Assembly (NCBI GenBank): GCA_024704765.1
Contig: JAKMXF010000221.1
Span: 62,001-126,000 of the forward strand
Length of the DNA stretch: 64,000 bases
Origin: Oopsacas minuta
Taxonomy: Eukaryota > Animalia > Porifera
Reading direction: 5' to 3'
Shown here: positions 20,797-50,190 of the stretch, one piece after another
How the letters are laid out: every line of letters starts with the position of its first letter
Numbering within the stretch: the stretch's first letter is position 1
The notes under the pieces: generated by a model
Seen by the model: the letters and a program-made list of their open reading frames with translations, nothing else
Database searches by the model: none
What the model was told of the DNA's origin: nothing
Position numbers and translations under genes: made by a program

Positions 20797-23700
20797 TTAT
20801 TCATAAGCAACAGAGTAGAGATCTTCACCAATCTCAGATATCAACCTGCTAAAAGAGATATTTTCTAGATTTCCTATAATCGCTATAACAATTCCACTGG
20901 GCACATCCTTGGTACCTTCATGGACACCCTCCTCCCCTCTAGGTAAAATCAGGAGGTAGCTAGATGCTCCAACAGCTCCTCCAGAGTGAAATACAGAAAA
21001 TCTCGCTGACTCATCTTCACTACGAACTCTTAACTGCTCTAAATTTGGCTTTATAAACCAACCTAGACCGATACATACTCCCTTATCATTAGTCTCAGTT
21101 TGACAGGCCCACATTTTCCTAACTATTCCCTGAGACAAAGCATACTCATTACTGCTATCTACTTCCTCTATTCGTTCAGAGGAGAGTTGATACACTCCCT
21201 GATAGAAACCTAACATAGTATTAGCAAACCTAGAGATGTCTAGGACATTAGATAAGAACCCACCTCCCGCCCATTTATATGAGTTATCAACATACGGTGT
21301 GTTTGTAAGCTTGTTACTCTTTCTAACGTAGTTCTTACTCCTATGAGAGAGGATAGGGCTATTCTTATCTTCATGAGTGCTGTATAGCTTATAGGGAGTA
21401 AACACGTTATTATGCATGAAGGTTAGATAAGATTGTTTAGCTGCAGTCTCAATAACAGCACTTAACAGAGTCCATGCGAGTGTTGAGTAGAGATAGCGTG
21501 TGCTAGGGGCGTGAACAAGAGAATCATCCTTGAAGATTTCTAAAGACGATTGGGTATCGGAGAAGTGAGTTTTGTTGTGCCATTCAGATCCCTCTTCCAT
21601 AATTTTAACAATCTATATATGGTTATACATATAAATCTAATATAACAATATGAATATTATGAGTCGTGAATTAACCTTGTGTTTCGAGCTGGCCTTATTA
21701 AACTCATCAGCCTTTATATAGTTTCTTATCCCTGACATGTGTGTCAATATGTGTCTAGTTGTTATAGTAACTTCTTTCTCTTCGAATTTCTTAACAGGAA
21801 ACTCAGGCACATAAGTTTGTATCGGAAGGTCAAAATCTATTTTCCCTCTTTGCCAGAGAAGAGCCATACCCGAGGCAGTGAGAGGCTTACTAATGCTAGC
21901 AATACGCATTACAGTGTTAGGGGTGCACGGGACAAGATTTTCTACGTCAGAATAACCGTAGCCTTTACTCCATATCAGCTTACCGTCTATAGATACCGCT
22001 GCACTGATACCTGGAATACCTGAAGGGAGTATGTGATGGTAAATTTTATATGTACGTATATCGATAAACCATCGAAAAGTTAATAGGTGATATCCAACAC
22101 TCAAACATTAGAATAATTACATATGGTAAACTTCTCTAATCGTTAACTACAAGCACAATACAATTAATGGCAGTGTATGAGAGCATACAATTAATGGCAG
22201 TGTATGAGAGCATACAATTAATGGCAGTGTATGAGAGCATACAAATTAATGGCAGTGTATGAGAGCATACAAATTAATGGCAGTGTATGAGAGCATACAA
22301 ATTTAATCCATTCGTGCTAGAATCCTTAAATTCTAATTACTGTAGGGTTTGAATTTCTAAAAAAATTCCATATATGAAGTTAGATAACTATGTGAGAATT
22401 AATCGTACAATTATCGTTACAAGTGGGACCTACAAAGATCACGATCAACAAACACAAGTATTATTAATATCTGCTATACAATTGTATTAAATAAAATTCC
22501 TTACATGAAATAATTATCTTTGAATAATCTTCAGAGTAGAAATAAATGCAAAAATAGATAAATATAATACAAAGGGGGAATAATTAAACATATTTATAGT
22601 TGCTGAAGCAAGGGTTAATTCCTAAACAGGACTAAAATAGAATTTTCAGATGTTACAAAAGAGGTAATTTCCAAACACTCAAATATTATTATTAGACTTT
22701 TAGTATTGCACTAGTTACCATTGAATTATTAATAAGCGAATAATGTCTAATTATAGAAACTTATTAAGCAACTATATATTCAATTTTTCATTAATCAGTT
22801 TGGGAATTTGGGATGATGTAAGAGGAATAAGATAGTCGATAGAAATAGCTATAGTCAGCCATAATATTGTTGACACCCCTCCTGTGAGAATTAACTAACT
22901 CTTGTGAACAAGAGATAAAATTCAATCTCCATTTAACTCATCAATGGTGTCTATGTTGTAAAACAGAAATAAAATAATTTAGGGGAGTTGCAAATTGATG
23001 AGGTATTAGGCGGTTCCACTGTACCAGCAAAAGTTTCCAGTGATTGCAAAATATTTGAGACGAAAGCGAAAGTTCCGTTTTAATACCTTAATTTAAATAC
23101 CAGACTAGTAAATGATAATATGAGATTTGACACTATAGCAATCAATCAATCGTTTTAATCTTCAATCAATTCTTTCTTGCTCTTCGATATCTTTAGATAT
23201 TTCTTAACCCCAGTTCTATACTTGTTCAAATCTTCCCTCAATTTATCTCTCTTCTCTCTCTTCTTCCTAATTATAATCCTACATAAAGGAGCTATACAAA
23301 CTAAACAGGGCAAATAGAGGAAGAAGCAAGCACCTAGAAACCAATCCACTGTGTTCTCACTAACTTGATGTCTCTTGTGGTACTTGCTTTTGCTTCCAAG
23401 GAAACTGTCTACGAATCTTCGTCTTCTCCGTTCTTTATCTCTACATAAACAATCCTCAACCAACATTTTCAACACACCTAGCGTTAGCAGTAGCGTAATA
23501 ATCGTGACAATAATCTTAACAGGGTCTTGCATCTGTTTGATTAAAAAGCAGATATAACAAGGAGGTCTAACATAAGTAATATTCAGAGAGTATAGACTTT
23601 CTGAAGAAAAACATTCTGATTGTAACATACTCATATCAAGCGAGGTATTAGCAGTGGTATTAGCAGTGGAATTAAGTGGTAGTGTAGGTTTCGTACTCAT

Positions 23701-25778
23701 ACCAGTTTCAGGGGAACATAAACACCCACAAGTAACAGGACAATAACAACTCATCATGGCTGCAAATGTCACCTGTCTACTGTCTGTCACTTTACCTAGA
23801 CTGTCTCTGAGAACAGCTTGACACGAATAGTTAGCATTTATGTCAAGAGTGACAGATACTACAAACTCGACAGTACGTGAATCAGAGGGATTGAGCTCAA
23901 AAGAACGGTCTCCTACAGGTAACACAGCATCATCACAGTTCTCTAGCGATAGCATGAACGTACTAGTAAGGTGACCGCTATTAACTACGGTAACCTTAAC
24001 CTCACCACCCCCTCCAAATGCATGGAAATCCTCTGCATTAGCATCAACAATACGACCAGTAGCAACATTTAGGACATAGCTCACGTTACTAGCTCTGAAC
24101 TCAAGACGTATCTCTGTCGTATGAGTTTCCTGTAGCAAATAACGCAAGTATGTTTTAGAAATCTTTCCATTCTTCTGAGAGACCGTAGATTTTAATTTAC
24201 CGTATGCTGAGGGGAAGTAGATGGGGTTCGTCTTGTTACCCACCGCCCATTTGTCACGTTGCCATATAATGAGAGGAGAGAATTGGAAACAAGAACCCCG
24301 GCTACGGTAACATTTTCTAGGTTGAGATACAAATGCTCTAAACTCAGAACCAAGCTTGTTACAAACATAACTATTCCTCTCGTATCTCGAAGCATCGACT
24401 AGCAACCATTCTCTAGCTCCAGCCTTTACCTGCTTGTGGTTTAGTTGGTTGCTCCGTGGGGTAGGAATAAGCAATATTTTAGAAGACAGGTCAGGTAGTG
24501 TACTGGTCAGGAATAAGCTACCTACACCCTCTACCTTGATGTCAGCAGTAGTTTGCATCAATCTAGATACTCCTATCGCACTAGATAGAGTAGCAGAGTC
24601 CACAGTCTCCCACTTCCCTGTTCCTTTACCGGATCTACGTTGTACCTTAACTTCAATATTATATCTTAACATTGGTGGCCCTGGTTTGTAAACTGAATAC
24701 CATAAGGGGGAATATCTAGGACAGTATGAGATACTACGTTGCCATATCTCATAAGAGGTAAGCTTACGAGAAAATCCCCGTCTATATCTTCTTTGTCCAA
24801 ACCTCTCATCAAATGTGGGGTTGCAACAGAAACCTTTGCTGTTTGGTATCATCTTTCCCTTGAGAGTTTTCTCACCCGGACACATGTCCACATTACACGC
24901 ACTGAGCGGGCTCTTCTTAATTAGTAATGGTTGAGATTCTCTCAATTGATTGTTGACATATTGACGAAGATATTTTAGCGGGTAGTCATAATGCACTGCA
25001 GATTTCCCAACAATAACTCTATACGGATCTAGGAGTCTTATCGATTCTCCGGTTTCATCTTTTGTATCTCTGATGTGGACCATTAGACGAGAGCCTTTAG
25101 CATTGTTAGATTTAACAGCTAGTACTATTACAAATGTGGATTTACAATCGTCAGTAGAAACAGTCATTGAGGAAGTACGTCTGTTGCATATTTGTACCTG
25201 ACTGTTGGAGATGATAGAACAGATGATTGGGTTAAGATATGTAATCAATAAGATAAGTAAGAAGTAAGAACGAGTAATATTATAACTCATTTGTTAAAAT
25301 TATAAGCTATCATGCAAATATTATGTAAATATTGAGAATAAGAAATAATTTATGAAAACTAACCGTGTTTTTCTTTGAATACCAGAAGTTTTTGATTGGT
25401 TCGTTTCAGTGCTTCTTTCAGCTCTTTTGATAGAGTATCTCTCTTTGGAAGAGAATTTACTGGTCTCTGTTTATTATGGAATTCAGTTTTATCAACCTTA
25501 TCAAGACAAGATGCAACTTGTAATGGCATCTCTCCCTGAAAAAATATTACCTCAATCTCTTTCTTTTTGAAATAGAATAATGCGGCTAATAATCCACAAA
25601 CTATCCCTAGGATAGGAGATACAGGATTGTACCTATTGCTTGACTCTTCATTTTCATTTTGAGAGAATTTCCTCTGTGTAATAATTGGATTATTTTTCAA
25701 AGAGACTGTTTGTGTGAGAATTCTGTAATTTGCTGATGATATATTTATATGAGGTGATAGCTTGGAGTAAACAAACAT
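20797..25778 (-). CDS. LACTB: Serine beta-lactamase-like protein LACTB (mitochondrial); exons 25778-25364, 22019-21676, 21611-20797
   Basis: The phase-1 intron 25363-22020 (GTTAGT...CTTCAG) joins ...KLLVFKEKH|G|IPGISAAVSIDGK..., matching LACTB ...IKDEVGAPGIVVGVSVDGK. SxxK (ASISK), YST and HSG motifs are present. Confidence 0.93.
22158..22302. repeat. Tandem minisatellite, five copies of a 27-28 bp unit
   Basis: Unit CA(A)ATTAATGGCAGTGTATGAGAGCATA repeated head-to-tail with no spacers. Confidence 0.95.
23155..25290 (-). CDS. HAP2: HAP2/GCS1 gamete fusogen (class II fusexin), intronless, 711 aa
   Basis: Signal peptide; SKGFCC; YCPRYSPLWYSVY; WLLVD...CNKLGSEFRAFVSQPRKCYRSRGSC (HAP2-GCS1 domain); Ig-like domain III (VTVVNSGHLTSTFMLSLENC); TM helix followed by a basic, Cys-rich tail. 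Confidence 0.9.
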   Translation of the reverse strand: MSYNITRSYFLLILLITYLNPIICSIISNSQVQICNRRTSSMTVSTDDCKSTFVIVLAVKSNNAKGSRLMVHIRDTKDETGESIRLLDPYRVIVGKSAVHYDYPLKYLRQYVNNQLRESQPLLIKKSPLSACNVDMCPGEKTLKGKMIPNSKGFCCNPTFDERFGQRRYRRGFSRKLTSYEIWQRSISYCPRYSPLWYSVYKPGPPMLRYNIEVKVQRRSGKGTGKWETVDSATLSSAIGVSRLMQTTADIKVEGVGSLFLTSTLPDLSSKILLIPTPRSNQLNHKQVKAGAREWLLVDASRYERNSYVCNKLGSEFRAFVSQPRKCYRSRGSCFQFSPLIIWQRDKWAVGNKTNPIYFPSAYGKLKSTVSQKNGKISKTYLRYLLQETHTTEIRLEFRASNVSYVLNVATGRIVDANAEDFHAFGGGGEVKVTVVNSGHLTSTFMLSLENCDDAVLPVGDRSFELNPSDSRTVEFVVSVTLDINANYSCQAVLRDSLGKVTDSRQVTFAAMMSCYCPVTCGCLCSPETGMSTKPTLPLNSTANTTANTSLDMSMLQSECFSSESLYSLNITYVRPPCYICFLIKQMQDPVKIIVTIITLLLTLGVLKMLVEDCLCRDKERRRRRFVDSFLGSKSKYHKRHQVSENTVDWFLGACFFLYLPCLVCIAPLCRIIIRKKREKRDKLREDLNKYRTGVKKYLKISKSKKELIED

Positions 25779-25871
25779 CTAAAACATAATTAAGTAGAAT
25801 TGTAGATTAAATAAATTTCGAAATTTTATACCTGAAGAAGAAATGATAAATAACTAGAAAAGAACAAAATA

Positions 25872-26111
25872 TTATTTTAATTTTTTTATTCTTTCTTCTT
25901 CTTCCGTCCAATCTTTGGGACATGGTTTGAGCCCTTCAGTTCTTCTCTCAGATTTAACTTTATTCATCAATTTCTTACACTCCCTGTATGCACGGAAATA
26001 TTTCTGACATTTTGATGGATCATAATTTGATTTAGACATACAGTTGTAAGATGCTTGGGCTTCTTCAGCACACGGGTTATTCCTGGGATCATTGAGTCTG
26101 TTACTATTCAT
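25872..26111 (-). CDS. CHCHD7: Twin CX9C protein CHCHD7/COX23
   Basis: LNDPRNNPCAEEAQASYNCMSKSNYDPSKCQKYFRAYRECKK...RRTEGLKP. Confidence 0.9.
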   Translation of the reverse strand: MNSNRLNDPRNNPCAEEAQASYNCMSKSNYDPSKCQKYFRAYRECKKLMNKVKSERRTEGLKPCPKDWTEEEERIKKLK

Positions 26112-36600: not shown

Positions 36601-37761
36601 CACAGCTTTATTGTACTCCTACATGTGTGGTAGATACTGACAGTATAACAGAGTAGTTATACTGTTCGTTCCCTCCCCTATATAATACACTTAATTATCT
36701 TAATACTAATTTACGTATACTATTTTATACTAGGTCTCGTTCACGATCTCGTTCTCATAACACTACCAGTTCATCCACTACACCTACGAGGGGAAGGAAG
36801 TCTAGACGGACGAGACACAGACACAGCCCAAGTTCCCCTTCCATGCAGTCTCAATCTTTATCCCGGTCTCCCACCCCTATGCCCTCTCAGAATCCCAGAT
36901 ACAGTAGAAAGAAGAGAAAAGGGAAACTCTCTTCAGACTCACCTGTCCCTAGGAAATACAAAAACTCATCTACAGGTATTATATATTGCACACTCTTTCT
37001 GACTATTTGTATCAAAATAGATGTGAATTCATATCCACTATTGAACTTGATTCTATGAATATTAGTATTCATTGTGTCATATTATATTGTTAGATGACTA
37101 TGACCCAGATTATGCTGCGTTTACAGAGGTGCCCCCTGAAATCCGTAATACTGAGGCATTCTGTTACTTCGGGAACCCTCCCCCTAAAGATCGGGAACGT
37201 ACACCCCAGTCTTACGCCGCTTCACGTCCTTACCCGGACCGAGAACGGGATAGAGACCGGTATGTGCAGCAGCCACGCCCCAACAGCTCCCGCTACCCCC
37301 GTACAAACTTCCAACCTTCTCACAGTACACATGGACATAATTTATATGAGCACAATAGTCCGAGGAATCACAATTCCTATCGAGGCTCTAGTACACAGGG
37401 CGGCGGCACAAACAGGAATAGATACAACTATTCAGGAAGCTATAGTACCTCTCCTCACCACAACTATAACAACTATCCACCTCACAAGAGCAATTACAAT
37501 TACAATTACAATAACTATCCTCAACAGAGACAACCTTACAGCAACAACTATCCTCACCAGAGAGGAGGCTACAACAATCATCAACCACAGAGAAGCAGTT
37601 ACACGCCCACTCATCCCAGACCAGGCTACAATCAATACCATCAGAAGGAGAGCTATTCAGCGAAGAGATCTTCCAAACACGAAGGGAATTCTGGAAAGCC
37701 TGAGAAGAACGAAAACGCTGGGTTCGGCGCATTCTACAGGAAAGATGACGATGAATGGTGA
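33655..37761 (+). CDS. Unknown ~800-aa low-complexity Ser/Arg/Pro-rich protein; exons 33655-34534, 35260-35856, 36734-36975, 37094-37761
   Basis: All three introns are GT-AG with matching phases (2, 2, 1). Junctions read KLR|AEAM, SKR|SRSRSRS and STD|DYDPDY. It has an RS tract and an N/Y/Q-rich C-terminus. Confidence 0.72.
34588..34745. mobile_element. Tc1/mariner (pogo/Tigger-like) MITE, 158 bp, intronic
   Basis: Perfect 20-bp TIR CAGTAAACATTGGATTTAAC flanked by a TA TSD. Confidence 0.9.
35944..36483 (-). CDS. CHAC2: ChaC glutathione-specific gamma-glutamylcyclotransferase, intronless
   Basis: WIFGYASLIWKP, RRFWQESTDHRGVPGAPGRVATL, VREKCGY, GHSGTNREYL. CHAC1 vs CHAC2 is uncertain. Confidence 0.95.
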   Translation of the reverse strand: MASEDSIWIFGYASLIWKPNIEYLQKKRGKVRGYMRRFWQESTDHRGVPGAPGRVATLVKSEGGEVWGYAFEISGNTKKKVFADLAVREKCGYELVGVSFYSESGEEIKAQCYMGTENNPEFLSYEEIQHTAEVITKSSGHSGTNREYLEKLVVAVKEVFPEENDEYLNALSEMVREMV

Positions 37762-37919
37762 GTATTGGTCAGTGGAGGAGAGGCCAAAGGCGCTTACCGC
37801 TGAGTGTCGGAGGCCATACTTCCATGGCGTTATTCATAGAACTGAATCATGTATGGCAATATACGTATATTTCCAATTGTTAATATTATATGAATTTAGA
37901 AGAGTTCACTTTTAATTGG

Positions 37920-39367
37920 CTAGATTAATTTCGTCTCTGTCGCTGCCACAACCTGCCACAATCTGATAGTCCTGTCATCAGAGCATGAGGCTAATACACC
38001 TGCTTGCTTTGGGTTCCAACTCACACAGTTGACATCCTTTTCGTGAGCCTGAGCATGTACTACACTTAAACTTAATCCATCTGTATCATCTAATGTGTAC
38101 ACTCGTATTACGTCATCTTCACAGCCTGTTGCTACCATACCGCTGTTCTTGCACCAGTCTACACTGTAGATAACTCTAGGGTGATCTCCTGATACAGTCA
38201 GCATACATTTCCATACTCCTGTCTTCTTCATAGGGCCATCTAGCTCCCAGACCTTCAACGACTGATCTGCACTACATGATATCAATCGTCTCCCTACAAA
38301 TATTATACATTGTTACAAACAGACACATACTTTACTTCGGTATACCTGTTGCATTGAAAGATATCGCCCACACGGTATTATCGTGTCCCGTTAGTGACTG
38401 GTGTAGAGTCCAATCATCATCATCCTGACAATACAGATTGATTTTGTTGTCGTAACTAGCTGATACCAACAGCTCCATACTCGGGTGCCATAGAACTTGC
38501 TTTACGTCTTGACTGTGATGTGTAAGAATACCGGAACACTCATATTCACTACCATCTTCACTTGCCTGATTAAAGTGGACAATTTTTATACGAATTATTT
38601 CTATATTCTAATAATTACTTATAAAACTTTCTACGATTCAAATCTCCATGATTTCTTTTTTGGCTACCTGGTCATTTGTAAAACATAAATTGAGATTTGA
38701 TTCGTAATATTTTTTACGAATTACGTGATTATCTGAATGAACTCACCTCCCACACCCAAACAGATTTGTCTCTACTGCAAGTAGCTAGGTATTCTCCACA
38801 AGCAGACCATCTAGCCCATTTCACTTCATTCTCATGACCTTCTAAGGTAATCATTGATTCAAATTCTCCACTCTTACTGCGATCCCAAATACAGCAAGTA
38901 CCATCAAAACTACAGCTAATAAGAAGATTGCCACAAGGAGAGAATGAAACTGAGCGAATAGTACGATTATGCTCCCCACTAAGAACGTTTCTACACACCT
39001 AAATAACAACAAACAGAATTGTCACAAGCTACTTCGAAGAAATTAATTATCATTAACAATTATATTATTCAGAAATAATTAATTTTTGCAATTTACAACT
39101 TGTTATAGATTAATATTTGTATTTCATAAATGTATTAATTCTATACAAAATAATATCTAATTGTGTTAACTTTACCATCTTTCCGTCTTCCTTAGCCCAT
39201 ATCCTTACAGTCTTGTCAGCTCCACAGCTAGCAAGTATGTTACCTTTAGGGCTCCAAACTACGCACCAAACTCTGTCTTCATGTCCCAACAGAGTTTGTT
39301 CGTGTTGTAGCTTTAGGGTCTGTGTACTGGAGAACTGTATACTCTCTCCTGCACTTGCAGTAGCCAT
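37920..39367 (-). CDS. CIAO1: Cytosolic iron-sulfur assembly WD40 protein, multi-exon
   Basis: [79 protein letters not shown]. Confidence 0.96.
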
Positions 39368-39739
39368 TGTGATAATTATAGAAATCTTTAGAAGTTAGAT
39401 TATCACTTGCTCGGTATATCACTAATAGTAATGCTAGAATTATAAAGATATAATAGCATCTTCAAACTTCTAATATCATCTTGCATCACTAACAACATGT
39501 AAGACAGTATATATTGTGCTATTAGGATGAAATATACTCACATGCCTGAGATTATAATAATAATTCTATTATAATTCACACCAGGTGTGCTATAGGTCAT
39601 ATTTCAATATATCTAGCAGATAATAAGATTATTATTTATTAATATTTACGTATGTTGCATTAATTCATTAGGAAATTATGGTATATCTGCATTTCATACA
39701 CATTTCTGACTAGAAGTAAAACTGAATTATTCTTTTAGG

Positions 39740-40060
39740 GCAGCAGAGAATCGCCGCTTACAGAGAGATGAATCTCCTTCTACGAATCGACAAGTTTCAG
39801 CTCGCTTAGCAGGTAGACTTGGTCCTCTCCCCTCCATCCATAATAAGAACGCGTCTATGAATTGGAAAGGGGAGACTAGTCGAGGTGGTACCAAACTAGA
39901 TAGAAATGTCTACAGAAAATGGCCTACACGTCCATATAACAACAGTGATGATGAATATAAACTAAACCTAAAGATTAAAGATATTATAGCTAAAAATGAA
40001 CAGATACTGCGGAGAAAGATCGAATTAGAAGAGGATAAAATGATCCATGGTTTATCGTGA
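39740..40060 (+). CDS. Small hypothetical protein or terminal exon with a C-terminal coiled coil
   Basis: Open frame from acceptor TTTTAG (39738) to TGA at 40060; first in-frame Met at 39857. The C-terminus LNLKIKDIIAKNEQILRRKIELEEDK resembles the CCDC9 motif. Confidence 0.4.
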   Translation, partial: AAENRRLQRDESPSTNRQVSARLAGRLGPLPSIHNKNASMNWKGETSRGGTKLDRNVYRKWPTRPYNNSDDEYKLNLKIKDIIAKNEQILRRKIELEEDKMIHGLS

Positions 40061-41233
40061 CTGAATCTAGTTATTCCAGTTTGCCTCGTCGTGCAAACTA
40101 CACTTACTTAGACAATGTGTATTCGAGCACGTTATCTTGTCTAAATATTAATATTTCTGTTCCCTCCCTCTAGTATACAGACCTCACTATAGCAGGGGCA
40201 CCCTGCTGCTGAGGTTATATTATAGAGTTGGGAGTAGGAATTCTAAGTAATCAGTTATTCTTATTTGCTTCAATATTAGTGTATAAACTTTGATTGAATA
40301 ATTAATAATTATCATATAGTATATAATAGATACGACGTAAAGGTATTATTTAGGAAAATAATCATGTCTATCGAATCTCCAATATAATTACGCGTAGCTG
40401 TTATTACTTTTATTGCGAACTGTTGCATGCTACACATGATTATCATGAAAGTAATGCGTGACTATATTGACTGCTATTTAGCATCAGGCTGAGGGGCGCA
40501 GAACTTTTAACAGCTTGAAAGATCCAGTGGATCACGCTCACCAATATACTTTGTATTAGCACTATGGGTTGTAACCAAGCAGGGCTCGAGCTCAAAAGGT
40601 TCGCCACGTTTTAACTTTGGTTCAAATCCGCAGAATTTCTTCTGTGAACAAGTTTAGAAACTTGTTTCAGCTCCAACTCCCGTAACACAATTGGATACTG
40701 CACGAATATTGTAACGATTGCCTTGTCATTATTCCACCGAACTCTCGTCATGACGGAGTGCTCGGATCGCGGTTTCATTTCGTTATTAGCGGTATTTCGT
40801 AGTTAGCGGAGTAAATCAATTACTTTTAAAGAAATCCATCAGGTCACCGTTAAGCTATATATATGGGGTAAGGAATCACTTCGTGATATCCGATTTGGTT
40901 ATAATTGGAGTGCACTATAGCCAATGTAGTTCAAAATTCAAAATATGGTCTAAGTCAGTCGAGTTTATGAATACTAATTCTTGAAATAATATAATTTAAA
41001 CGCCGCCTGCCTGTTTGCATCTTTAGCTTGTGATATCGTGGGGCTGACCAACTCATTTGGCAATGTACTTAACCATCATACGTAATTACTATTATAGGGT
41101 ATCATTATCCTTGTAAGATCATTTACAAGTAGTGTTAGGTAACACAATACAAATATACACAATCTGTGGTGGGTATAAATACAGCTAATAGTCTACTAGC
41201 AGTTTATATTATAACAATTTCTGATTCAGTATA

Positions 41234-43430
41234 ATGGCTAGTAAAGAAAAAAGAGATTCAGTGGATCATCAAACAGTGATGGCCACTAACGTTATGTTCC
41301 AACCCGGACACGTGACAAGAGGGATGAGGTCTATGACATTTGGACATCGTGGGAAGTTCACAGGTTGTACAGTTTGGTTCACGGGTCTGTCCGGATCGGG
41401 AAAAACAACAATCTCGTTCGCTGTTGAGAATTTACTTTGTTCTCAAGGCCTCCCTTCCTATGGCCTAGATGGAGACAACATAAGGACAGGGCTGAATAAG
41501 AATCTAGGATTCTCACCAAACGACAGAGAGGAAAACATCAGGAGAATATCAGAGGTATAACTATAATTATTTATATTCTATAAACTATTGTATTATATGT
41601 CTATTACTACAGGTTTCTAAACTATTTGCAGACTCTGGTATGGTGTGTCTAGCTAGCTTCATAAGTCCCTATGCTAAGGACAGAGAGAGAGCAAGAGAAA
41701 TCCATGTAGAATCTGGACTCAAGTTTTTTGAGGTATACCTCTCCACTCCACTTGAGGTAAGATATGCTATAGTATTAGCTGAGAATAGTATGAATTATGA
41801 TTATCATATTACAGGTTTGTGAGAACAGAGACGTGAAAGGCTTGTACAAGAAAGCTCGTGACGGACAAATCAAAGGATTCACTGGAATAGATTCTGCTTA
41901 TGAACCTCCCTCCAACCCTTCTCTGGTGCTAGATACTAGCAAATTTACTGTCCCTGAATGTGTAGAGAAGATAATCGACCTACTGACTGCTAATGACGTA
42001 ATACCTGGTCAGGCGGTTGAAGCTGTGAAGGAACTATTTGTAGATGTAGAAGAGAAAGATAAGCTGATGAAAGCAGCTGATAACATGCACAGAGTTGATA
42101 TTAGCACTCTTGATATGCAATGGTTACAGGTAACATCTTGCCTATTGAATTAATACAAATTATGAAACAATTGACTAACTAATACTCTAAATAGGTGCTA
42201 TCTGAAGGCTGGGCTAGTCCACTGACTGGGTTCATGACAGAGGATCAATATCTACAAACTCTACACTTCAATAACCTCCTAGGACAAGGCTTCTATTCAC
42301 AATCTATTCCCATTGTGTTGCCAATCAGTAGCGAGATTAAACAGACTCTTGCAGAGAAGGAAATCAATGAAGTATCGCTCTACTATCAAGACAAGCTAGT
42401 AGCGTATATGACAGATATTGATGTGTTCCCTCATCGTAAAGAGGAGAGATGTGCACGACAGTTCGGAACCACTAACAAAGGACATCCATACATTGAAATG
42501 ATTGAGAAGTCTGGTGATTGGTTGATAGGAGGAGAACTACATGTAAGTATTTCTATTTCTATTTCTATTACTATTACTATCATATACTAGATATTGATAT
42601 CCATGGTTCTGGTAGGTATTTGAACGTGTGTGTTGGGGAGACGGTCTTGATGAGTACCGCAAGAAGCCAAATGAACTTAAGGCTAAGTTCAAGGAGATGG
42701 AAGCAGACACAGTGTTTGCCTTCCAACTGAGAAATCCTATTCATAACGGACATGCTTGTTTAATGGATGACACTAAGCAACAGCTGTTACAGAAGGGCTA
42801 TAAGAAACCTGTATTACTATTACATCCACTAGGTCAGTGTACTATACGTAGATATGATATAAAATAATTGCTTTAAATTATAATGTATTAATTCCTATAG
42901 GCGGCTGGACTAAGTCTGATGACGTACCTCTACCAGTGCGTATTGAGCAACATCTAGCAGTCCTGAAGGAAGGTATATTGGATCCAGCAACTACTGTGCT
43001 TGCTATATTCCCCTCTCCCATGATGTATGCTGGACCCACTGAAGTACAATGGCATGCTAAAGCTAGAGTAGCTGCTGGAGCAAAGTTCTATATAGTAGGG
43101 CGTGATCCAGCTGGGATGCCTCATCCAGACGGTTCTGGAGATTTGTATGACCCTACCCATGGTCGCAGGGTGTTGAAACTATCCCCTGGCCTCACACAAC
43201 TAGAGATCGTTCCATTTAAGGTAGCAGCCTACAACAAGATTCAAAAACAGATGGCATTCTTTGATCCTAAACGAGCTGACGAATTTGAGTTCATTTCCGG
43301 TACAAAGATGCGAGCTTTAGCTAGGAATGGAGAGAACCCTCCAGATGGTTTCATGGCTCCTTCTGCTTGGAAAATAATGGTTGAGCATTATCGGAGTTTA
43401 AAATCTGGTAGTGCTGAGCATGAGAAGTGA
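41234..43430 (+). CDS. PAPSS1: Bifunctional PAPS synthase (APS kinase + ATP sulfurylase), multi-exon
   Basis: [67 protein letters not shown]. The paralog number is nominal. Confidence 0.98.
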
Positions 43431-44083: not shown

Positions 44084-44351
44084 ATAACTGTATTGATTTT
44101 CTACACTCATTATGAAACTGTAAATCAATTATTAAACTCATGGACTAAATGATATATCCTTTAATAAAATACACTTATTGCTTCTTATGCAGAAGAATAT
44201 CTCGATCATGAAATTATCGGATCCAAAGGATGATTGAGAGTTAATTAATATGGTCACGTATACACTATACAGTGAGTATATCAGTTAGTATCTTATTACA
44301 TTTAATACACACGTGAATAGCTTGGCATGTGCCGCCTCCCTTTTTACTAGT

Positions 44352-44594
44352 ATGGACAGATCGATATCAGAAAAGAAAGGAAAAGTAGAACTATTCTCCT
44401 CAGCTAACTCCATAAGCTTCATAAAAGGGTTTCTATCAGGATTCGTATTCGCTAACTTGAGTAAGTCACTTGTCATCGGGTTTGTTATTGGGTCAGCTGC
44501 TGGAATATTTTTAGAACAACAGACTCCTAGAACTTTTCCAGACGTGAGAGACTATATAAAGGATTTGCGAGCACGATTATCTAAGAAAGATTAA
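44352..44594 (+). CDS. 80-aa membrane microprotein similar to the SLC35A4 upstream-ORF protein (STMP1/DUF4535-like family)
   Basis: FIKGFLSGFVFANLSKSLVIGFVIGSAAGIFLEQ...PDVRDY aligns with the recalled human SLC35A4-uORF protein FLKGFLAGYVVAKLRASAVLGFAVGTCTGIYAAQ...PNVEKTLRDY. Confidence 0.75.
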   Translation: MDRSISEKKGKVELFSSANSISFIKGFLSGFVFANLSKSLVIGFVIGSAAGIFLEQQTPRTFPDVRDYIKDLRARLSKKD

Positions 44595-45702
44595 TGCAAG
44601 CTATCACAGCATTCGTTTCTACTTTTACAACAGGATTGATAGATTCAATAAAGGGGGTATCTCTATTCATTATACTAATTAGGAAAAATGGCGAGCTTCA
44701 AAACTCATTCCGTAAATCCGTAGTTCTTAACATATTCGTATTGGCATTCAGTGTCCTTACAATTGAATACATTATATTTCCATTATTTTCTCTGTTACTC
44801 TCTCTCGTGTCCTCACTTCTCTTCCCAGACACAGCCAAGCAAAATCTCGAAATGGTTACCATGGTAACAACGGTGGTATGGTATATAATAAATGGTTTAT
44901 GGGTGCTTCCTCTGCTTTGGATAAGTAAGATAATTAATATACTCACATTCCAGAAGATGGCAGTTGCTGCCTACAAGACTTCTTTTCCAGTTAACAAACA
45001 ATCCCGCAGTCCCAACCACAATCTCAATATTTCTCTTAAAAGTGAGTTATTTGCATTATAAGAAAATGAATTTTGTGATTTATTTTATTTCTTATATTTG
45101 CGTTTATAGCTCAGATCTCTCGCGTGCTAGCTGATGGTATATTCAGAATGGTGATAGAACTTCTGTTCATGTTACAATCCCTCTGTATTTCATTCATCCC
45201 TGTAGTTGGATCTATTGTGTATCTGCTCCACCTATCTTTACTAAACGCACTCTATGCATTTGAATACAAATGGATGCATCAAGGAATTGAAACTAAAGCA
45301 ATGCTCAGATACATACAATGTGGTAAGAGTAGGATTTAGAATTTTGACTGCGGATAGTATATATATATATATATATATTTGATTCTTAATACCTGTTTAG
45401 GTTGGCCTTACTTCATTGGCTATGCTTCCATCCTAACACTAGCTACTTATATTCCAGCCTCTTTTGTTCTGAGTGCTTGTATCTATTCAGCTTTTTTCCC
45501 TCTCTACATTGTAAGTGCATATCCTGCTAAGGTTAAGCTGTCTCATCATGCTATCCCACAACTGCGAATATTCACACTATCGAGTATGGTAGCTGATAAG
45601 TTGTTTGTTAAATCTACACGGAGTCCTACGATAGATCGTCGATCAGCTGTCAAAGATGTCACCCAATCCATTTCTGAGAGTTTGACAAATACAACAGACT
45701 AA
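44594..45702 (+). CDS. EI24: EI24 autophagy-associated ER transmembrane protein, three exons
   Basis: GLIDSIKG, WVLPLLWISKIIN..FQKMA..AY, LLHLSLLNALYAFEYKW, GWPYFIGY, LFPL-like motif (FFPLYIVSA). Confidence 0.9.
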
Positions 45703-45836
45703 TAATAATAATTTTAATTATCGTGTGATGTGTTTCAATACGGTAGTGTGTTCAATAAAGATATTAATTATAAATAGCACTATTTCTCCGAATAAACCCT
45801 TATAGCTGTATAGATATATACTTGTTAGTATAGGGC

Positions 45837-46340
45837 ATGTCTCTACGAATGCCATCGAGAGGTGGGGTGAGAGGCGGGAAGGATCAGTTTGATTGGGAGG
45901 ATGTCAAAGCTGATAAATATCGCGAAAACTATCTTGGCCATTCTCTCAAAGCGCCTATTGGTCACGTGCATAAGGTTCGTGAACAGAACTGGTACATGAA
46001 GGATGGTACAGGTGATCAGCAGAAGGAACTGAATGAAGAAGTACGGATGATTAAAGAGATGGAGTCACGGGGGATGGCTATAGCTCTAGGACAAGAAGAC
46101 ACTAATATAAGGGATATGGAAGAGAAGGGAGAGAGCGTGTCTCTATCTGATAAAATGGTTAAGGAAATATTAGGCGTTAGTAGCAGCGGGAAAGATATAA
46201 AAATTAAGAAAAAGAGTAAGAAAATAAAACGGGAAAAGAAAGAAAAGAAAAGAGAGAAGAATGAAAAATCAAAACACAGTAATGAATTGAAAATATCTAC
46301 AAATGGACTGACGAATAAATCTAAGCACAAACAGAAATAA
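45837..46340 (+). CDS. MMTAG2: MMTAG2 / C1orf35 homolog
   Basis: PSRGGVRGGKDQFDWEDVKADKYRENYLGHSLKAPIG, followed by a Lys-rich tail. Confidence 0.93.
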   Translation: MSLRMPSRGGVRGGKDQFDWEDVKADKYRENYLGHSLKAPIGHVHKVREQNWYMKDGTGDQQKELNEEVRMIKEMESRGMAIALGQEDTNIRDMEEKGESVSLSDKMVKEILGVSSSGKDIKIKKKSKKIKREKKEKKREKNEKSKHSNELKISTNGLTNKSKHKQK

Positions 46341-46607: not shown

Positions 46608-48610
46608 ATGATGTCTCTGTCTCATGTCAATCGCAAAGAAGCTGAATTTACTTTTCATACATGTGACGATGGTAACAAAGGGTTTCTCGACAAGGAAGAT
46701 TATAAAACTGCCGTAATTTCACTGTTCGGACTAATGCCTACTGATTCGGAGATAGATGAGGTATTTGTGGCAGGCAAAGAACAAAAGGAAGGTAGATAAA
46801 TAAAAATAAAGTATTTGTATACTAATTTTATATATTTTCATCATTTTTAAAATCTCAGAAGATGGTCTTTCCTTGAGGAAAGATAAATTTATCAATCTCA
46901 TGGTTTGGAGGAGTGGATCTGCACTAAATTGTTACAATTATGAACGACTTCTATTTGATTGTTTTGACCCACTACAAGATGGATTTATCAAAATTGAGGA
47001 TTTCGAGAAGATAGTACAAAAATATTTTCCAAAGGTAATTCAGTACAACATTCAAAGACATATTTAATGTCACGTAATTACAATCCAGTACGTAAAAAGT
47101 TCGATACAGTTATAGCTTGAAATCGGAAAGAGTGACAAGCAATATTCCGCAAAGAATGAATACGAATGCACTTAGGAAGAGAATCAGATTCACCTTTCCT
47201 TGAATCTCCCTGAAAACGAGTATACCCCAAATGGAAGAGATAATAGGAGGGCCAGATGATACTAATGGGTACGAAATTGAAGTGGACACTATCCCGTTAA
47301 CGTATATCCATACCATGGTTCCTGTTGCCCATATTCCACCAGAAATTATCCCAGGCAAGAGAGCTTGTGGGTAGATGCTTGGTTTATTCAATTTCACAAT
47401 AGAGTATACTACTAGGATTAGAGTAGCCATAAGGAATATCCCTGTAGTGTAAGGAAATGCATAGTCTAAGCTATCTGCACTATAATACGTATTGTTATGA
47501 GACAGGGTGGTCATTATGCTAATTGGTAGGAACATGAAGCCGTAGAATGTACCCGACATAAACCCCAGACTAACTCCTAGAATCTTTCTAAATATAGGAT
47601 GTAGTGACTCTATACAAGCTAGATCATCTTCATTACTCTTGTCTATTGCTCTAACATCAGCATTAATAGTTTTATAAGGAATAGAAGTGGAAGAGGAATT
47701 GGGTTGCTTATCCTCAGGATCTCCGAGAAGGGGGGTTCTTTCACGATTTTTCTGAGTTTCTTGTTTCTTTAGAGTAGGTTTTACAAATGCGATCAGAAAT
47801 CCTCCTATAATACAAACTAGTACTCCTACATAGTTCATGATCGGATAACAGAGCACTTTCTTATCAATTCCGAACATACCGAATGTACTAGTCGCCCATC
47901 CTACAACCATAGAAGTGATTGCCCATATTAGGAACCCAACAGATAGGCCCAGAAGCTTTATTATTGGAACCACACATACGTTACCCAGTGACCAAATAGC
48001 TCCACCGATTGCTGCCTCTATATAGAAACGAGGGAATTGCTGAATGCCGTATGTAATGAGTCCTCCTATTAGGATAGCTACTGACATTACCCATTGGAAG
48101 AATACTCCATCTCCTGTCTCGAACTTCTTAACTGGGACATAGTTACTTCCATAACATAAAGTCGGTATTATAGTGAGTACAATACCTACTAACATGCCAG
48201 GAGAATTAGAAGTATCATTAGAAGTAGATTTGTTAGTAGCTAGTTCACATGTAGTTTGTGCTGATGCTGAGGGAGTAGAGAGCAAGAGCAAGACTGATAC
48301 CAACAGTATGGATAAAGTGGTAATACAATGAAAATACATTGTAGTGGCAGAGGTAGGCCTAATTGCTAAGATGATAAGCTTAAAATACTAGTTATAGATC
48401 TAGCATTGTCTCAAGGTTAAGATCAATTTACAATTGCATACTTCACTTCAGTCTAGCACCTAATAATAATTTTATGAGTATATCATTGTGTAGACGGAGA
48501 GAGCTTTCACTCAGGAGGTATTCAACAAGATAGATATTGATTGTGACAGTAAACTAAGTTACAAAGAATTCACTATATTCTTGCAACAGTCTGCAAGCAT
48601 ACTTACATAA
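46608..48610 (+). CDS. EFCAB11: EF-hand calcium-binding protein EFCAB11; exons 46608-46791, 46859-47034, 48494-48610
   Basis: CDDGNKGFLDKEDYKTAVISLFG; FDCFD..QDGFIKIEDF; the last exon (phase-0 junction PK|TER) supplies VFNKIDIDCDSKLSYKEF, the final EF hand. Confidence 0.85.
47110..48339 (-). CDS. TMEM144: TMEM144 (DMT superfamily transporter), intronless
   Basis: Signal peptide; YGSNYVPVKKFETGDGVFFQWVM; GGAIWSLGN; YAFPYTTGIF; PGIISGGIW; about 10 TM segments. Confidence 0.93.
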   Translation of the reverse strand: MYFHCITTLSILLVSVLLLLSTPSASAQTTCELATNKSTSNDTSNSPGMLVGIVLTIIPTLCYGSNYVPVKKFETGDGVFFQWVMSVAILIGGLITYGIQQFPRFYIEAAIGGAIWSLGNVCVVPIIKLLGLSVGFLIWAITSMVVGWATSTFGMFGIDKKVLCYPIMNYVGVLVCIIGGFLIAFVKPTLKKQETQKNRERTPLLGDPEDKQPNSSSTSIPYKTINADVRAIDKSNEDDLACIESLHPIFRKILGVSLGFMSGTFYGFMFLPISIMTTLSHNNTYYSADSLDYAFPYTTGIFLMATLILVVYSIVKLNKPSIYPQALLPGIISGGIWATGTMVWIYVNGIVSTSISYPLVSSGPPIISSIWGILVFREIQGKVNLILFLSAFVFILCGILLVTLSDFKL

Positions 48611-49164: not shown

Positions 49165-50190
49165 ATGGATAACTCGAAGGTGTTATTTAGGCAGTGGTTG
49201 AAGATAGGGGGAGCCATCATATTCTACTGGTGTAACTCCATAGGGATGATATTCTTTAACAAATTTCTCTTCAGTTCGAAAGATCTAGATTTGAATGCTC
49301 CCTTGTTCGTAACTTGGTTTCAAGGTATCATAACTGTTCTATTTTGTTTGATAGGTGGAATTACAATCGGTGACTCTATCCCAATAATTGGAACATTTCC
49401 TAAAATCACTTTTGACTTTAAAATGGCATCTAACTGCTTGCTACTGTCTGTAGTAACTGCCATATCTATAACATTTAAGAATCTAACACTCACAAAGATA
49501 GAAATCGCGTTCTATAGCGTTAGTTTAGCTATGGGAACTATTTTCACTGTATTATTCTCATGGATGATTTTGAAGCAACGTATTTCAATAGTCATTATGT
49601 TAACCTGTGTTGTTATAGTAGCAGGATTTGCATTGAGTGTGGAACAGCAAAGGGAGCTCGCAGGTTTATCAATGGTTGGCCTATTCTATGGTGTCATGTC
49701 TTCAATCATTGGTCCGCTCTCACAAATCCAGCTCAAGAGAACCCTTTCCATTGTAAACAATCTATGGGTCTTAACTTTCTATACTAATTTCAATGTATTA
49801 TTCATCTATCCAGTGCTGTCTATTATGTTAGGTGAATATGAGAGTCTTATGAAATTTAAACAACTAACCAATCCGTTCTTCTGGGTGCTACTGACACTCA
49901 GTGGATTCGTGGGAGTATCTCTATCAATTGCCATTTCGCTTCAAGTATCATTGACTTCTCCTCTCACTTCCAACATCAGTGGAGTTGCCAAAAACTGCAT
50001 ACAAACTGTCCTAGCCGTTTTGGTTAATCCTGAAGCTAAGTCAGGGACCTGGTGGCTAGGAAATTTGGCCATTCTTGGGGGCTCAGGTGCATACACAATC
50101 GTTCGTATGGAGGAAATGAAAGTTCAAACCGTGAAAGTTGTGTCGAGTGAAGTTAAGATGGAGGAAGGAATAGTTGATGAAAAGTCTTGA
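49165..50190 (+). CDS. SLC35C1: Nucleotide-sugar transporter, GDP-fucose transporter-like, intronless
   Basis: YWCNSIGMIFFNKFL..DLDLNAPLFVTWFQ; TSPLTSNISGVAKNCIQT. ATG at 49165. Confidence 0.82.
   Translation: MDNSKVLFRQWLKIGGAIIFYWCNSIGMIFFNKFLFSSKDLDLNAPLFVTWFQGIITVLFCLIGGITIGDSIPIIGTFPKITFDFKMASNCLLLSVVTAISITFKNLTLTKIEIAFYSVSLAMGTIFTVLFSWMILKQRISIVIMLTCVVIVAGFALSVEQQRELAGLSMVGLFYGVMSSIIGPLSQIQLKRTLSIVNNLWVLTFYTNFNVLFIYPVLSIMLGEYESLMKFKQLTNPFFWVLLTLSGFVGVSLSIAISLQVSLTSPLTSNISGVAKNCIQTVLAVLVNPEAKSGTWWLGNLAILGGSGAYTIVRMEEMKVQTVKVVSSEVKMEEGIVDEKS

Follow-up and report, generated by a model that had tools for sequence, protein, structure and literature searches.

In the 64,000-nt window of the Oopsacas minuta genome, i.e., the whole stretch of DNA that was analysed, a predicted 80-aa microprotein of the two-helix STREMI/SLC35A4-MP type is encoded immediately upstream of EI24, and the stop codon of the small open reading frame (ORF) shares its last base with the EI24 start codon. 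The two ORFs likely reside on a predominantly bicistronic mRNA, and there is about an even chance that EI24 is reached on this shared mRNA by scanning rather than by ribosomes that have finished the microprotein.

Organization of the microprotein-EI24 locus

The window represents the compact, intron-poor genome of a eukaryote, and its RPL32 falls into the same 90% cluster as a Vazella pourtalesii protein; as V. pourtalesii is a glass sponge, this points to a likely hexactinellid host. On the forward strand, the genes are arranged in the order PAPSS, NDUFA7, 80-aa ORF, EI24, MMtag gene and EF-hand gene. As already noted in an earlier sequence-only reading of this DNA, NDUFA7 (PF07347) is the direct neighbor, and its 3' end lies 268 nt upstream of the locus; other same-strand intergenic gaps range from 68 to 1173 nt (n = 7 measured). 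The microprotein ORF (44352..44594, +) is intronless, and the final A of its TAA (44592-44594) is the first base of the EI24 ATG (44594-44596). The coordinates proposed for this TAATG overlap (-1; 44592..44596, +) were thereby confirmed. None of the runs X1-X4 displayed an indel in the region, and the overlap is therefore not a sequencing frameshift. Twelve juxtapositions of a stop codon and an ATG with at least 50 open codons on each side occur in the window; the one -1 overlap among them is the TAATG described here, and, by reading, only the microprotein/EI24 pair unites two recognisable proteins. The pentamer itself is not rare, as it was found at 3 of 21 other picked gene starts.

The predicted EI24 gene consists of three exons (44594..45041, 45110..45322 and 45401..45702 to the stop, all +) encoding 320 aa, and both introns were seen as GT..AG joints in run X4. 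Exon 2 matched PF07264 with 32.3 bits (cut-off 32), and 222 of the 320 residues of the spliced product are identical to the full-length relative P0109, which itself matches PF07264 at E 2e-10. The first Met is conserved in all eight relatives covering exon 1, another Met does not follow until residue 87, and the EI24 frame contains an in-frame stop at 44582 upstream of the start. On this comparison, the start at 44594 is correct, as had been assumed before. Its context, with T at -3 and C at +4, is not diagnostic: among 21 picked starts, 4 also have T at -3. EI24 has been associated with roles in ER-mitochondria contact and autophagy (cf. PMC6063967, PMC12875698).

Several further features were observed in the window. 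The PAPS synthase gene (41234-43430) is located two genes upstream of the locus. A loose end in X4 connects 37756 to about 39739, indicating an intron of about 2 kb in a forward-strand gene (37094-40060); this intron encloses an entire WD40 gene on the opposite strand (37920-39367, -), which is thus nested and which we take to be CIAO1-like. On the minus strand, a tight run (23155-26111) comprises a CHCH-domain gene, a 139-aa ORF without a match in the Pfam scan, and the gamete fusogen HAP2/GCS1 (PF10699, E 8e-81; apparently a single exon), with spacings of 93 and 68 nt. An ORF resembling nucleotide-sugar transporters, presumably of the SLC35 type, is located 3.5 kb downstream of EI24 (49165-50190); its proximity, given SLC35A4 as the vertebrate partner, is probably a coincidence.

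The 80-aa ORF is a predicted member of the STREMI/SLC35A4-MP family

A phmmer search against 1.84 billion proteins identified 26 homologues of the microprotein ORF at E<=0.001, one of which (P0018) is named 'SLC35A4 upstream microprotein-like'. A profile built from 17 vertebrate-type rows scored 49.8 bits against the ORF, whereas the highest-scoring of 1000 shuffles reached 5.2; the test is mildly circular in that the rows had been found using the query, and they were labelled by a motif and by two mammalian rows that carry names. With a profile restricted to helix 1, residues 23-36 scored 16.1 bits (4.6 for the top shuffle), and leads from the ESM Atlas gave values of 0.89 and 0.82. All five glycines of the GxxxG and GxxxGxxxG motifs are present, G26/30/43/47/51 corresponding to human G50/54/67/71/75; the numbering was verified on P0038 against the published positions G54/71/75 and L52/A69/C73. 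By these sequence matches, the sponge ORF is a homologue of STREMI/SLC35A4-MP, as proposed earlier, where homologue covers both one-to-one orthology and deep paralogy, which a tree of 58 columns does not separate.

In the profile search that had been proposed earlier, the DUF4535 model (PF15054) recognized many relatives but not the ORF: the latter had no match at E<=0.1 and no Pfam match of its own, whereas in alignment A1, which comprises the ORF and 27 homologues, 19 of 28 rows matched, from helix 2 onward only. As the DUF4535 matches start at helix 2, the ORF is of the two-helix STREMI type rather than the one-helix STMP1 type.

With low confidence (pLDDT 63.5, pTM 0.29), a structure model of the microprotein displayed a single extended helix spanning residues 19-57, and a C-terminal helix (65-79) was also predicted; a search for a solved structure of a relative returned none. 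The N-terminus, which was left unmodelled, is about 24 residues shorter than that of the human protein. In human STREMI, an N-terminal amphipathic helix (11-28) is required for mitochondrial import (PMC13303939), and this helix has no full-length counterpart in the sponge microprotein. The microprotein is predicted to form a two-pass glycine-zipper hairpin in the mitochondrial inner membrane like STREMI, and its mitochondrial location and binding to MIC10/MICOS would follow from the same family resemblance.

The exact microprotein sequence was absent from a collection of 15 billion proteins in which the neighboring RPL32, NDUFA7 and a ChaC-like ORF are present. A two-helix member is named from the choanoflagellate Salpingoeca rosetta (P0066, PTSG_07539), in line with the earlier view of an ancient family, and besides it about 30 further rows are of non-vertebrate type. 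Rows P0049-P0065 represent a large non-vertebrate subgroup of two-helix proteins. STREMI homologues have been described as exclusive to vertebrates (PMC13303939), and PMC12183330 likewise reports no homologue earlier than vertebrates; both statements rest on BLAST-level searches. In the STREMI supplements, as far as covered here, no Salpingoeca, Amphimedon, Porifera or Oopsacas was found, and the trees in the figures may file such proteins under STMP1. Our own tree of two-helix homologues was built without STMP1 rows, and its deep forks are not resolved.

The microprotein and EI24 are likely encoded on a shared transcript

Run X4 was treated as RNA-like, as it is the sole run showing splice joints (8), although it is not on record as RNA; it represents one sample, possibly the source of the window. 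X4 record 1 (44319-44388) begins at an AG (44319..44320, +), a likely spliced-leader acceptor that would constitute the 5' end of the shared mRNA, and carries three unplaced letters at its 5' end, from which we infer the spliced leader. From 44319 onward, X4 pieces chain with 30-letter overlaps through the microprotein and the stop/start overlap into EI24, although each of the listed records falls short of 31 letters on at least one side of the overlap, and the contigs do not equal a single transcript. Upstream, between NDUFA7 and the locus, X4 has a hole in its cover (44130-44313), which is given no weight regarding linkage to NDUFA7.

No 5' branch was found in the X4 contig chain between 44319 and EI24. 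Depths along the main path were 1638-2530, with the EI24 splice joints at 2022 and 2438, and no depth step was seen along it, depth being a poor measure here. In the bin 44613-35, the unlisted depth amounts to 2425.0 x 17 letters, equal to the values at 44608 and 44626. With a 5' branch at 44584-44599, this bin would instead rise by 104-1670. As the depth of the bin is thus accounted for, there is no room for such a branch, and elsewhere an error bubble of 6x sufficed to split the X4 path. A single hidden split is compatible with a piece that ends at 44609, for which adaptor is the simplest explanation. The trans-splice site at 44584/44585 that had been considered as freeing EI24 was accordingly not seen in this one RNA-like run.

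Leader joints are apparently visible in X4, because neighboring genes break exactly 29 nt past an AG acceptor, at 45812 and at CAG 41227; these breaks are likely spliced-leader joints. The AG at 45812..45813 (+) is the likely leader acceptor of the MMtag gene (PF10159) and the outer limit of the unit; it is preceded by 11 non-genomic loose letters, and X4 record 23 (45670-45841) stops 29 nt after it. The 11 letters are A-rich, end in TTAC ahead of the AG and likely represent the 3' end of the organism's spliced leader; the window does not encode this putative end, with 0 matches where 0.23 would be expected. Glass sponges possess a spliced leader (PMC10282587). The pyrimidine-rich AG at 44349-50 does not qualify as an acceptor: record 1 crosses it unbroken, and organism B changes the AG.

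In X4, low-depth contigs (136 and 289) extend at 39738-41256 and 45670-45841 from the end of one gene to the likely leader acceptor of the next (PAPSS and MMtag, respectively), as would read-through precursors of an operon-like cluster or, possibly, DNA carry-over. Operons had not been reported in hexactinellids as of 2021, according to PMC7986045. X4 also contained second alleles, C/T at 44420 (silent, in the microprotein) and A/T at 47668.

We therefore consider it probable that EI24 and the microprotein reside on a predominantly bicistronic mRNA, in line with the shared mRNA implied by the earlier reading. At the protein level, both ORFs are conserved. As both EI24 introns lie after the first stops, the persistence of this RNA suggests that EI24 is translated from it or that the RNA evades decay.

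Translation of EI24

Up to EI24, the shared mRNA would contain AUGs at 44327, 44352 and 44594 and none between. The first opens a 7-codon uORF (44327..44350, +; inside X4 record 1), the TAG of which ends 1 nt before the microprotein ATG. Neither this uORF nor the AUG-free stretch that follows figures in the earlier reading. The pyrimidine-rich AG described earlier as preceding the latter ATG is indeed present, but one T intervenes, and the AG is part of the uORF stop. The microprotein AUG is in a strong context (A at -3, G at +4). In organism B, which is represented by one contig at depth 6.3 with 15 of 18 differences listed, the tiny uORF is retained with 5 codons, owing to a 3-nt deletion that stays in frame and a stop that comes sooner; indels upstream of the uORF are 1, 2 and 4 nt in length (one case).

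Inside the microprotein ORF, 237 nt are devoid of ATG in any frame, which applies to 3 of 98 coding stretches of this length in the window. When the codon order of the microprotein was shuffled, 6813 of 20000 sequences (34%) were ATG-free, so that composition accounts for much of this corridor; the shuffles are often ATG-free since Met, Trp and Cys are missing from the protein. A core without these residues is found in 4/4 EI24-linked microproteins and in 0/36 other homologues, where the linked four are kin and count as one event. Such a pattern is a requirement of scanning access to EI24, not of coupling.

As proposed here, the mRNA would start with a spliced leader at 44321. Ribosomes leaking past the first AUG (44327) would produce the microprotein, while those translating the tiny uORF would terminate too near the microprotein AUG to restart there. 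The latter may resume scanning across the AUG-free ORF and reach the EI24 start, as after uORF1 of ATF4/GCN4, and plain leaky scanning may contribute additionally to EI24. Human STREMI also functions as an ATF4-like uORF (PMC13303939). PMC10275272 states that reinitiation is favored by short uORFs, that distance matters, and that reinitiation drops with ORF length, long ORFs usually requiring an RNA element. For scanning, the exact -1 overlap is dispensable. An ATG within 40 nt upstream is present at 5 of 21 picked starts, which counts against the proposal. We put the chance that scanning is the route at about one half; weight remaining beyond scanning and the alternatives below belongs to mixed or unlisted routes.

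Possible, if rather unlikely, is that EI24 is produced from the same mRNA mainly by termination-reinitiation at the UAAUG after the 80-codon ORF, by which the amounts of the two proteins would be coupled. The exact -1 overlap is like those of influenza B M1/BM2 and SART1, the microprotein AUG has the strong context described above, and cellular coupled cases are known (PMC3923131). In addition, all four linked microproteins are 80 aa in length and end in KKD, all eight EI24 relatives share the Met start, and organism B has no listed change across 44510-44607, which includes the overlap. However, a change-free stretch of 98 nt arises by chance in 32% of trials and is thus not significant, and a conserved overlap alone is no proof of coupling because a lost spacer cannot drift. 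Also the recurrence of TAATG at other starts and the AUG-free corridor, for which coupling has no need, argue against this route. Influenza-type termination-reinitiation, as formerly suggested, was not borne out: the UGGGA core (viral-type TURBS motif 1) is absent from the forward strand between 44055 and 45894. The last 100 nt ahead of the stop contain three one-mismatch sites, but near-matches of this kind are at chance level, being carried by 439 of 639 comparable pieces. Folding z-scores upstream (0.2 to 1.0) were no better than those of shuffles, although viral TURBS are also weakly folded, and an aspartate-rich tail as in the CASQ cases is missing.

It is quite improbable that EI24 is mainly translated from an mRNA of its own, started or leader-spliced within the small ORF and confined to a minor isoform, tissue or stage, while the long RNA mainly serves the microprotein. 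The spliced leader of glass sponges and the trans-spliced appearance of the neighboring genes would allow for this, AGs are present at 44584 and 44588, and a single sample with five X4 loose ends not displayed was available. On the other hand, X4 has no branch at 44584-44599, the six loose ends displayed were all sequencing adaptor, and the path is free of depth steps. Finally, it is highly improbable that the small ORF serves chiefly as a regulatory uORF, or is a relic in decay, with an unimportant peptide, as its absence from the protein collection, the missing Pfam match and the low-confidence model might indicate, given 70-81% identity in three relatives, the five retained glycines, and 5 silent versus 2 replacement changes in organism B, both to residues present in relatives; nor is a frameshift fusion of both ORFs any more probable, as the EI24-frame stop at 44582 leaves three codons for the shift and no canonical slippery heptamer was found by eye.

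Possible conservation of the pairing in relatives

In three of the eight EI24 relatives, the microprotein and EI24 exon 1 have longest contigs of equal size (1,522,452; 1,019,073; 288,322), and RPL32 is likewise present in two of the three; linkage here refers to these matching contig sizes. The other five relatives have no microprotein record, which carries little weight as the microprotein of the window itself is equally missing. The contig of P0109 measures 1350 nt and the predicted spliced unit 1347 nt, which is a match in length only. Several other homologues occur on records of 540-940 nt; if these are complete, they leave no space for another long ORF, which hints weakly that the pairing does not extend across the family. 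Searches of metagenome and genome contigs yielded 576 and 104 pattern matches for EI24 and 381 and 83 for the second microprotein subgroup, none of which was confirmed.

Relation to known systems and origin

Bicistronic microprotein mRNAs and UAAUG overlaps are already known kinds of arrangement. The closest is STREMI (SLC35A4-MP, AltSLC35A4) with SLC35A4 in jawed vertebrates, which shares the two-helix family with its GxxxG and GxxxGxxxG motifs, the position as upstream cistron before a membrane protein and likely a uORF-type control. The sponge locus differs in its partner, EI24, in the 1-nt ORF overlap, in its non-vertebrate host and in a microprotein of 80 instead of 103 aa with a short N-terminus. 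In addition, the intronless member is the downstream SLC35A4 in vertebrates but the upstream ORF here, followed by EI24 with its two introns. STMP1/DUF4535 (PF15054) has the second helix and the following motif in common with the sponge ORF, but its 45-position model begins at helix 2, whereas the ORF also has helix 1. Termination-reinitiation at UAAUG (influenza B M1/BM2, the SART1 retrotransposon, CHV1) involves the identical pentanucleotide overlap after a coding ORF, and the stop-start distance (-1) is inside the range of about 20 nt applied there; however, the sponge case is a cellular gene pair without UGGGA motif 1, known here from sequence. As in the ATF4/GCN4 uORF switch, a short first uORF is followed by a second upstream ORF and by the main ORF about 240 nt later, but in the sponge the second ORF encodes a conserved protein starting 1 nt past the first stop, and stress control is putative. 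Spliced-leader-resolved clusters such as nematode and tunicate operons likewise consist of densely arranged genes on one strand, with probable leader acceptors and read-through RNA, whereas the microprotein/EI24 junction is apparently not resolved by a leader.

According to PMC13303939, STREMI became paired with SLC35A4 in jawed vertebrates only, when the downstream gene, which is intronless, was retroposed. Therefore, the sponge and vertebrate arrangements are probably convergent rather than inherited, and the earlier notion that the family 'keeps' an upstream-cistron lifestyle was not supported. The microprotein-EI24 pairing likely originated when neighbors in a compact genome lost the spacer and the trans-splice site that had separated them, and such a loss in a packed cluster would be the simplest route. 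In the literature searched, no report was found of the microprotein-EI24 locus, of EI24 as a bicistronic partner or of this range of the family. A farther-reaching scenario, in which true UAAUG coupling without a viral TURBS occurs glass-sponge-wide and ties a MICOS-type microprotein to an ER-mitochondria contact protein, and in which a pre-animal STREMI was captured at least twice as a stress-responsive upstream cistron, is unlikely.

Implications

The two-helix forms of the sponge and Salpingoeca rosetta would shift the origin of the family to before animals, and the non-vertebrate members represent natural variants for testing the role in cristae. The ORF had been missed by gene callers, and similar pairs may hide in other compact genomes. 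The genome is seemingly able to part neighbors by trans-splicing, apparently not at this junction, making the locus a clean test case for second-cistron translation in an animal. If the family was captured independently a second time in the sponge to serve as an upstream cistron, by the reverse of the retroposition route, it would be prone to such use.
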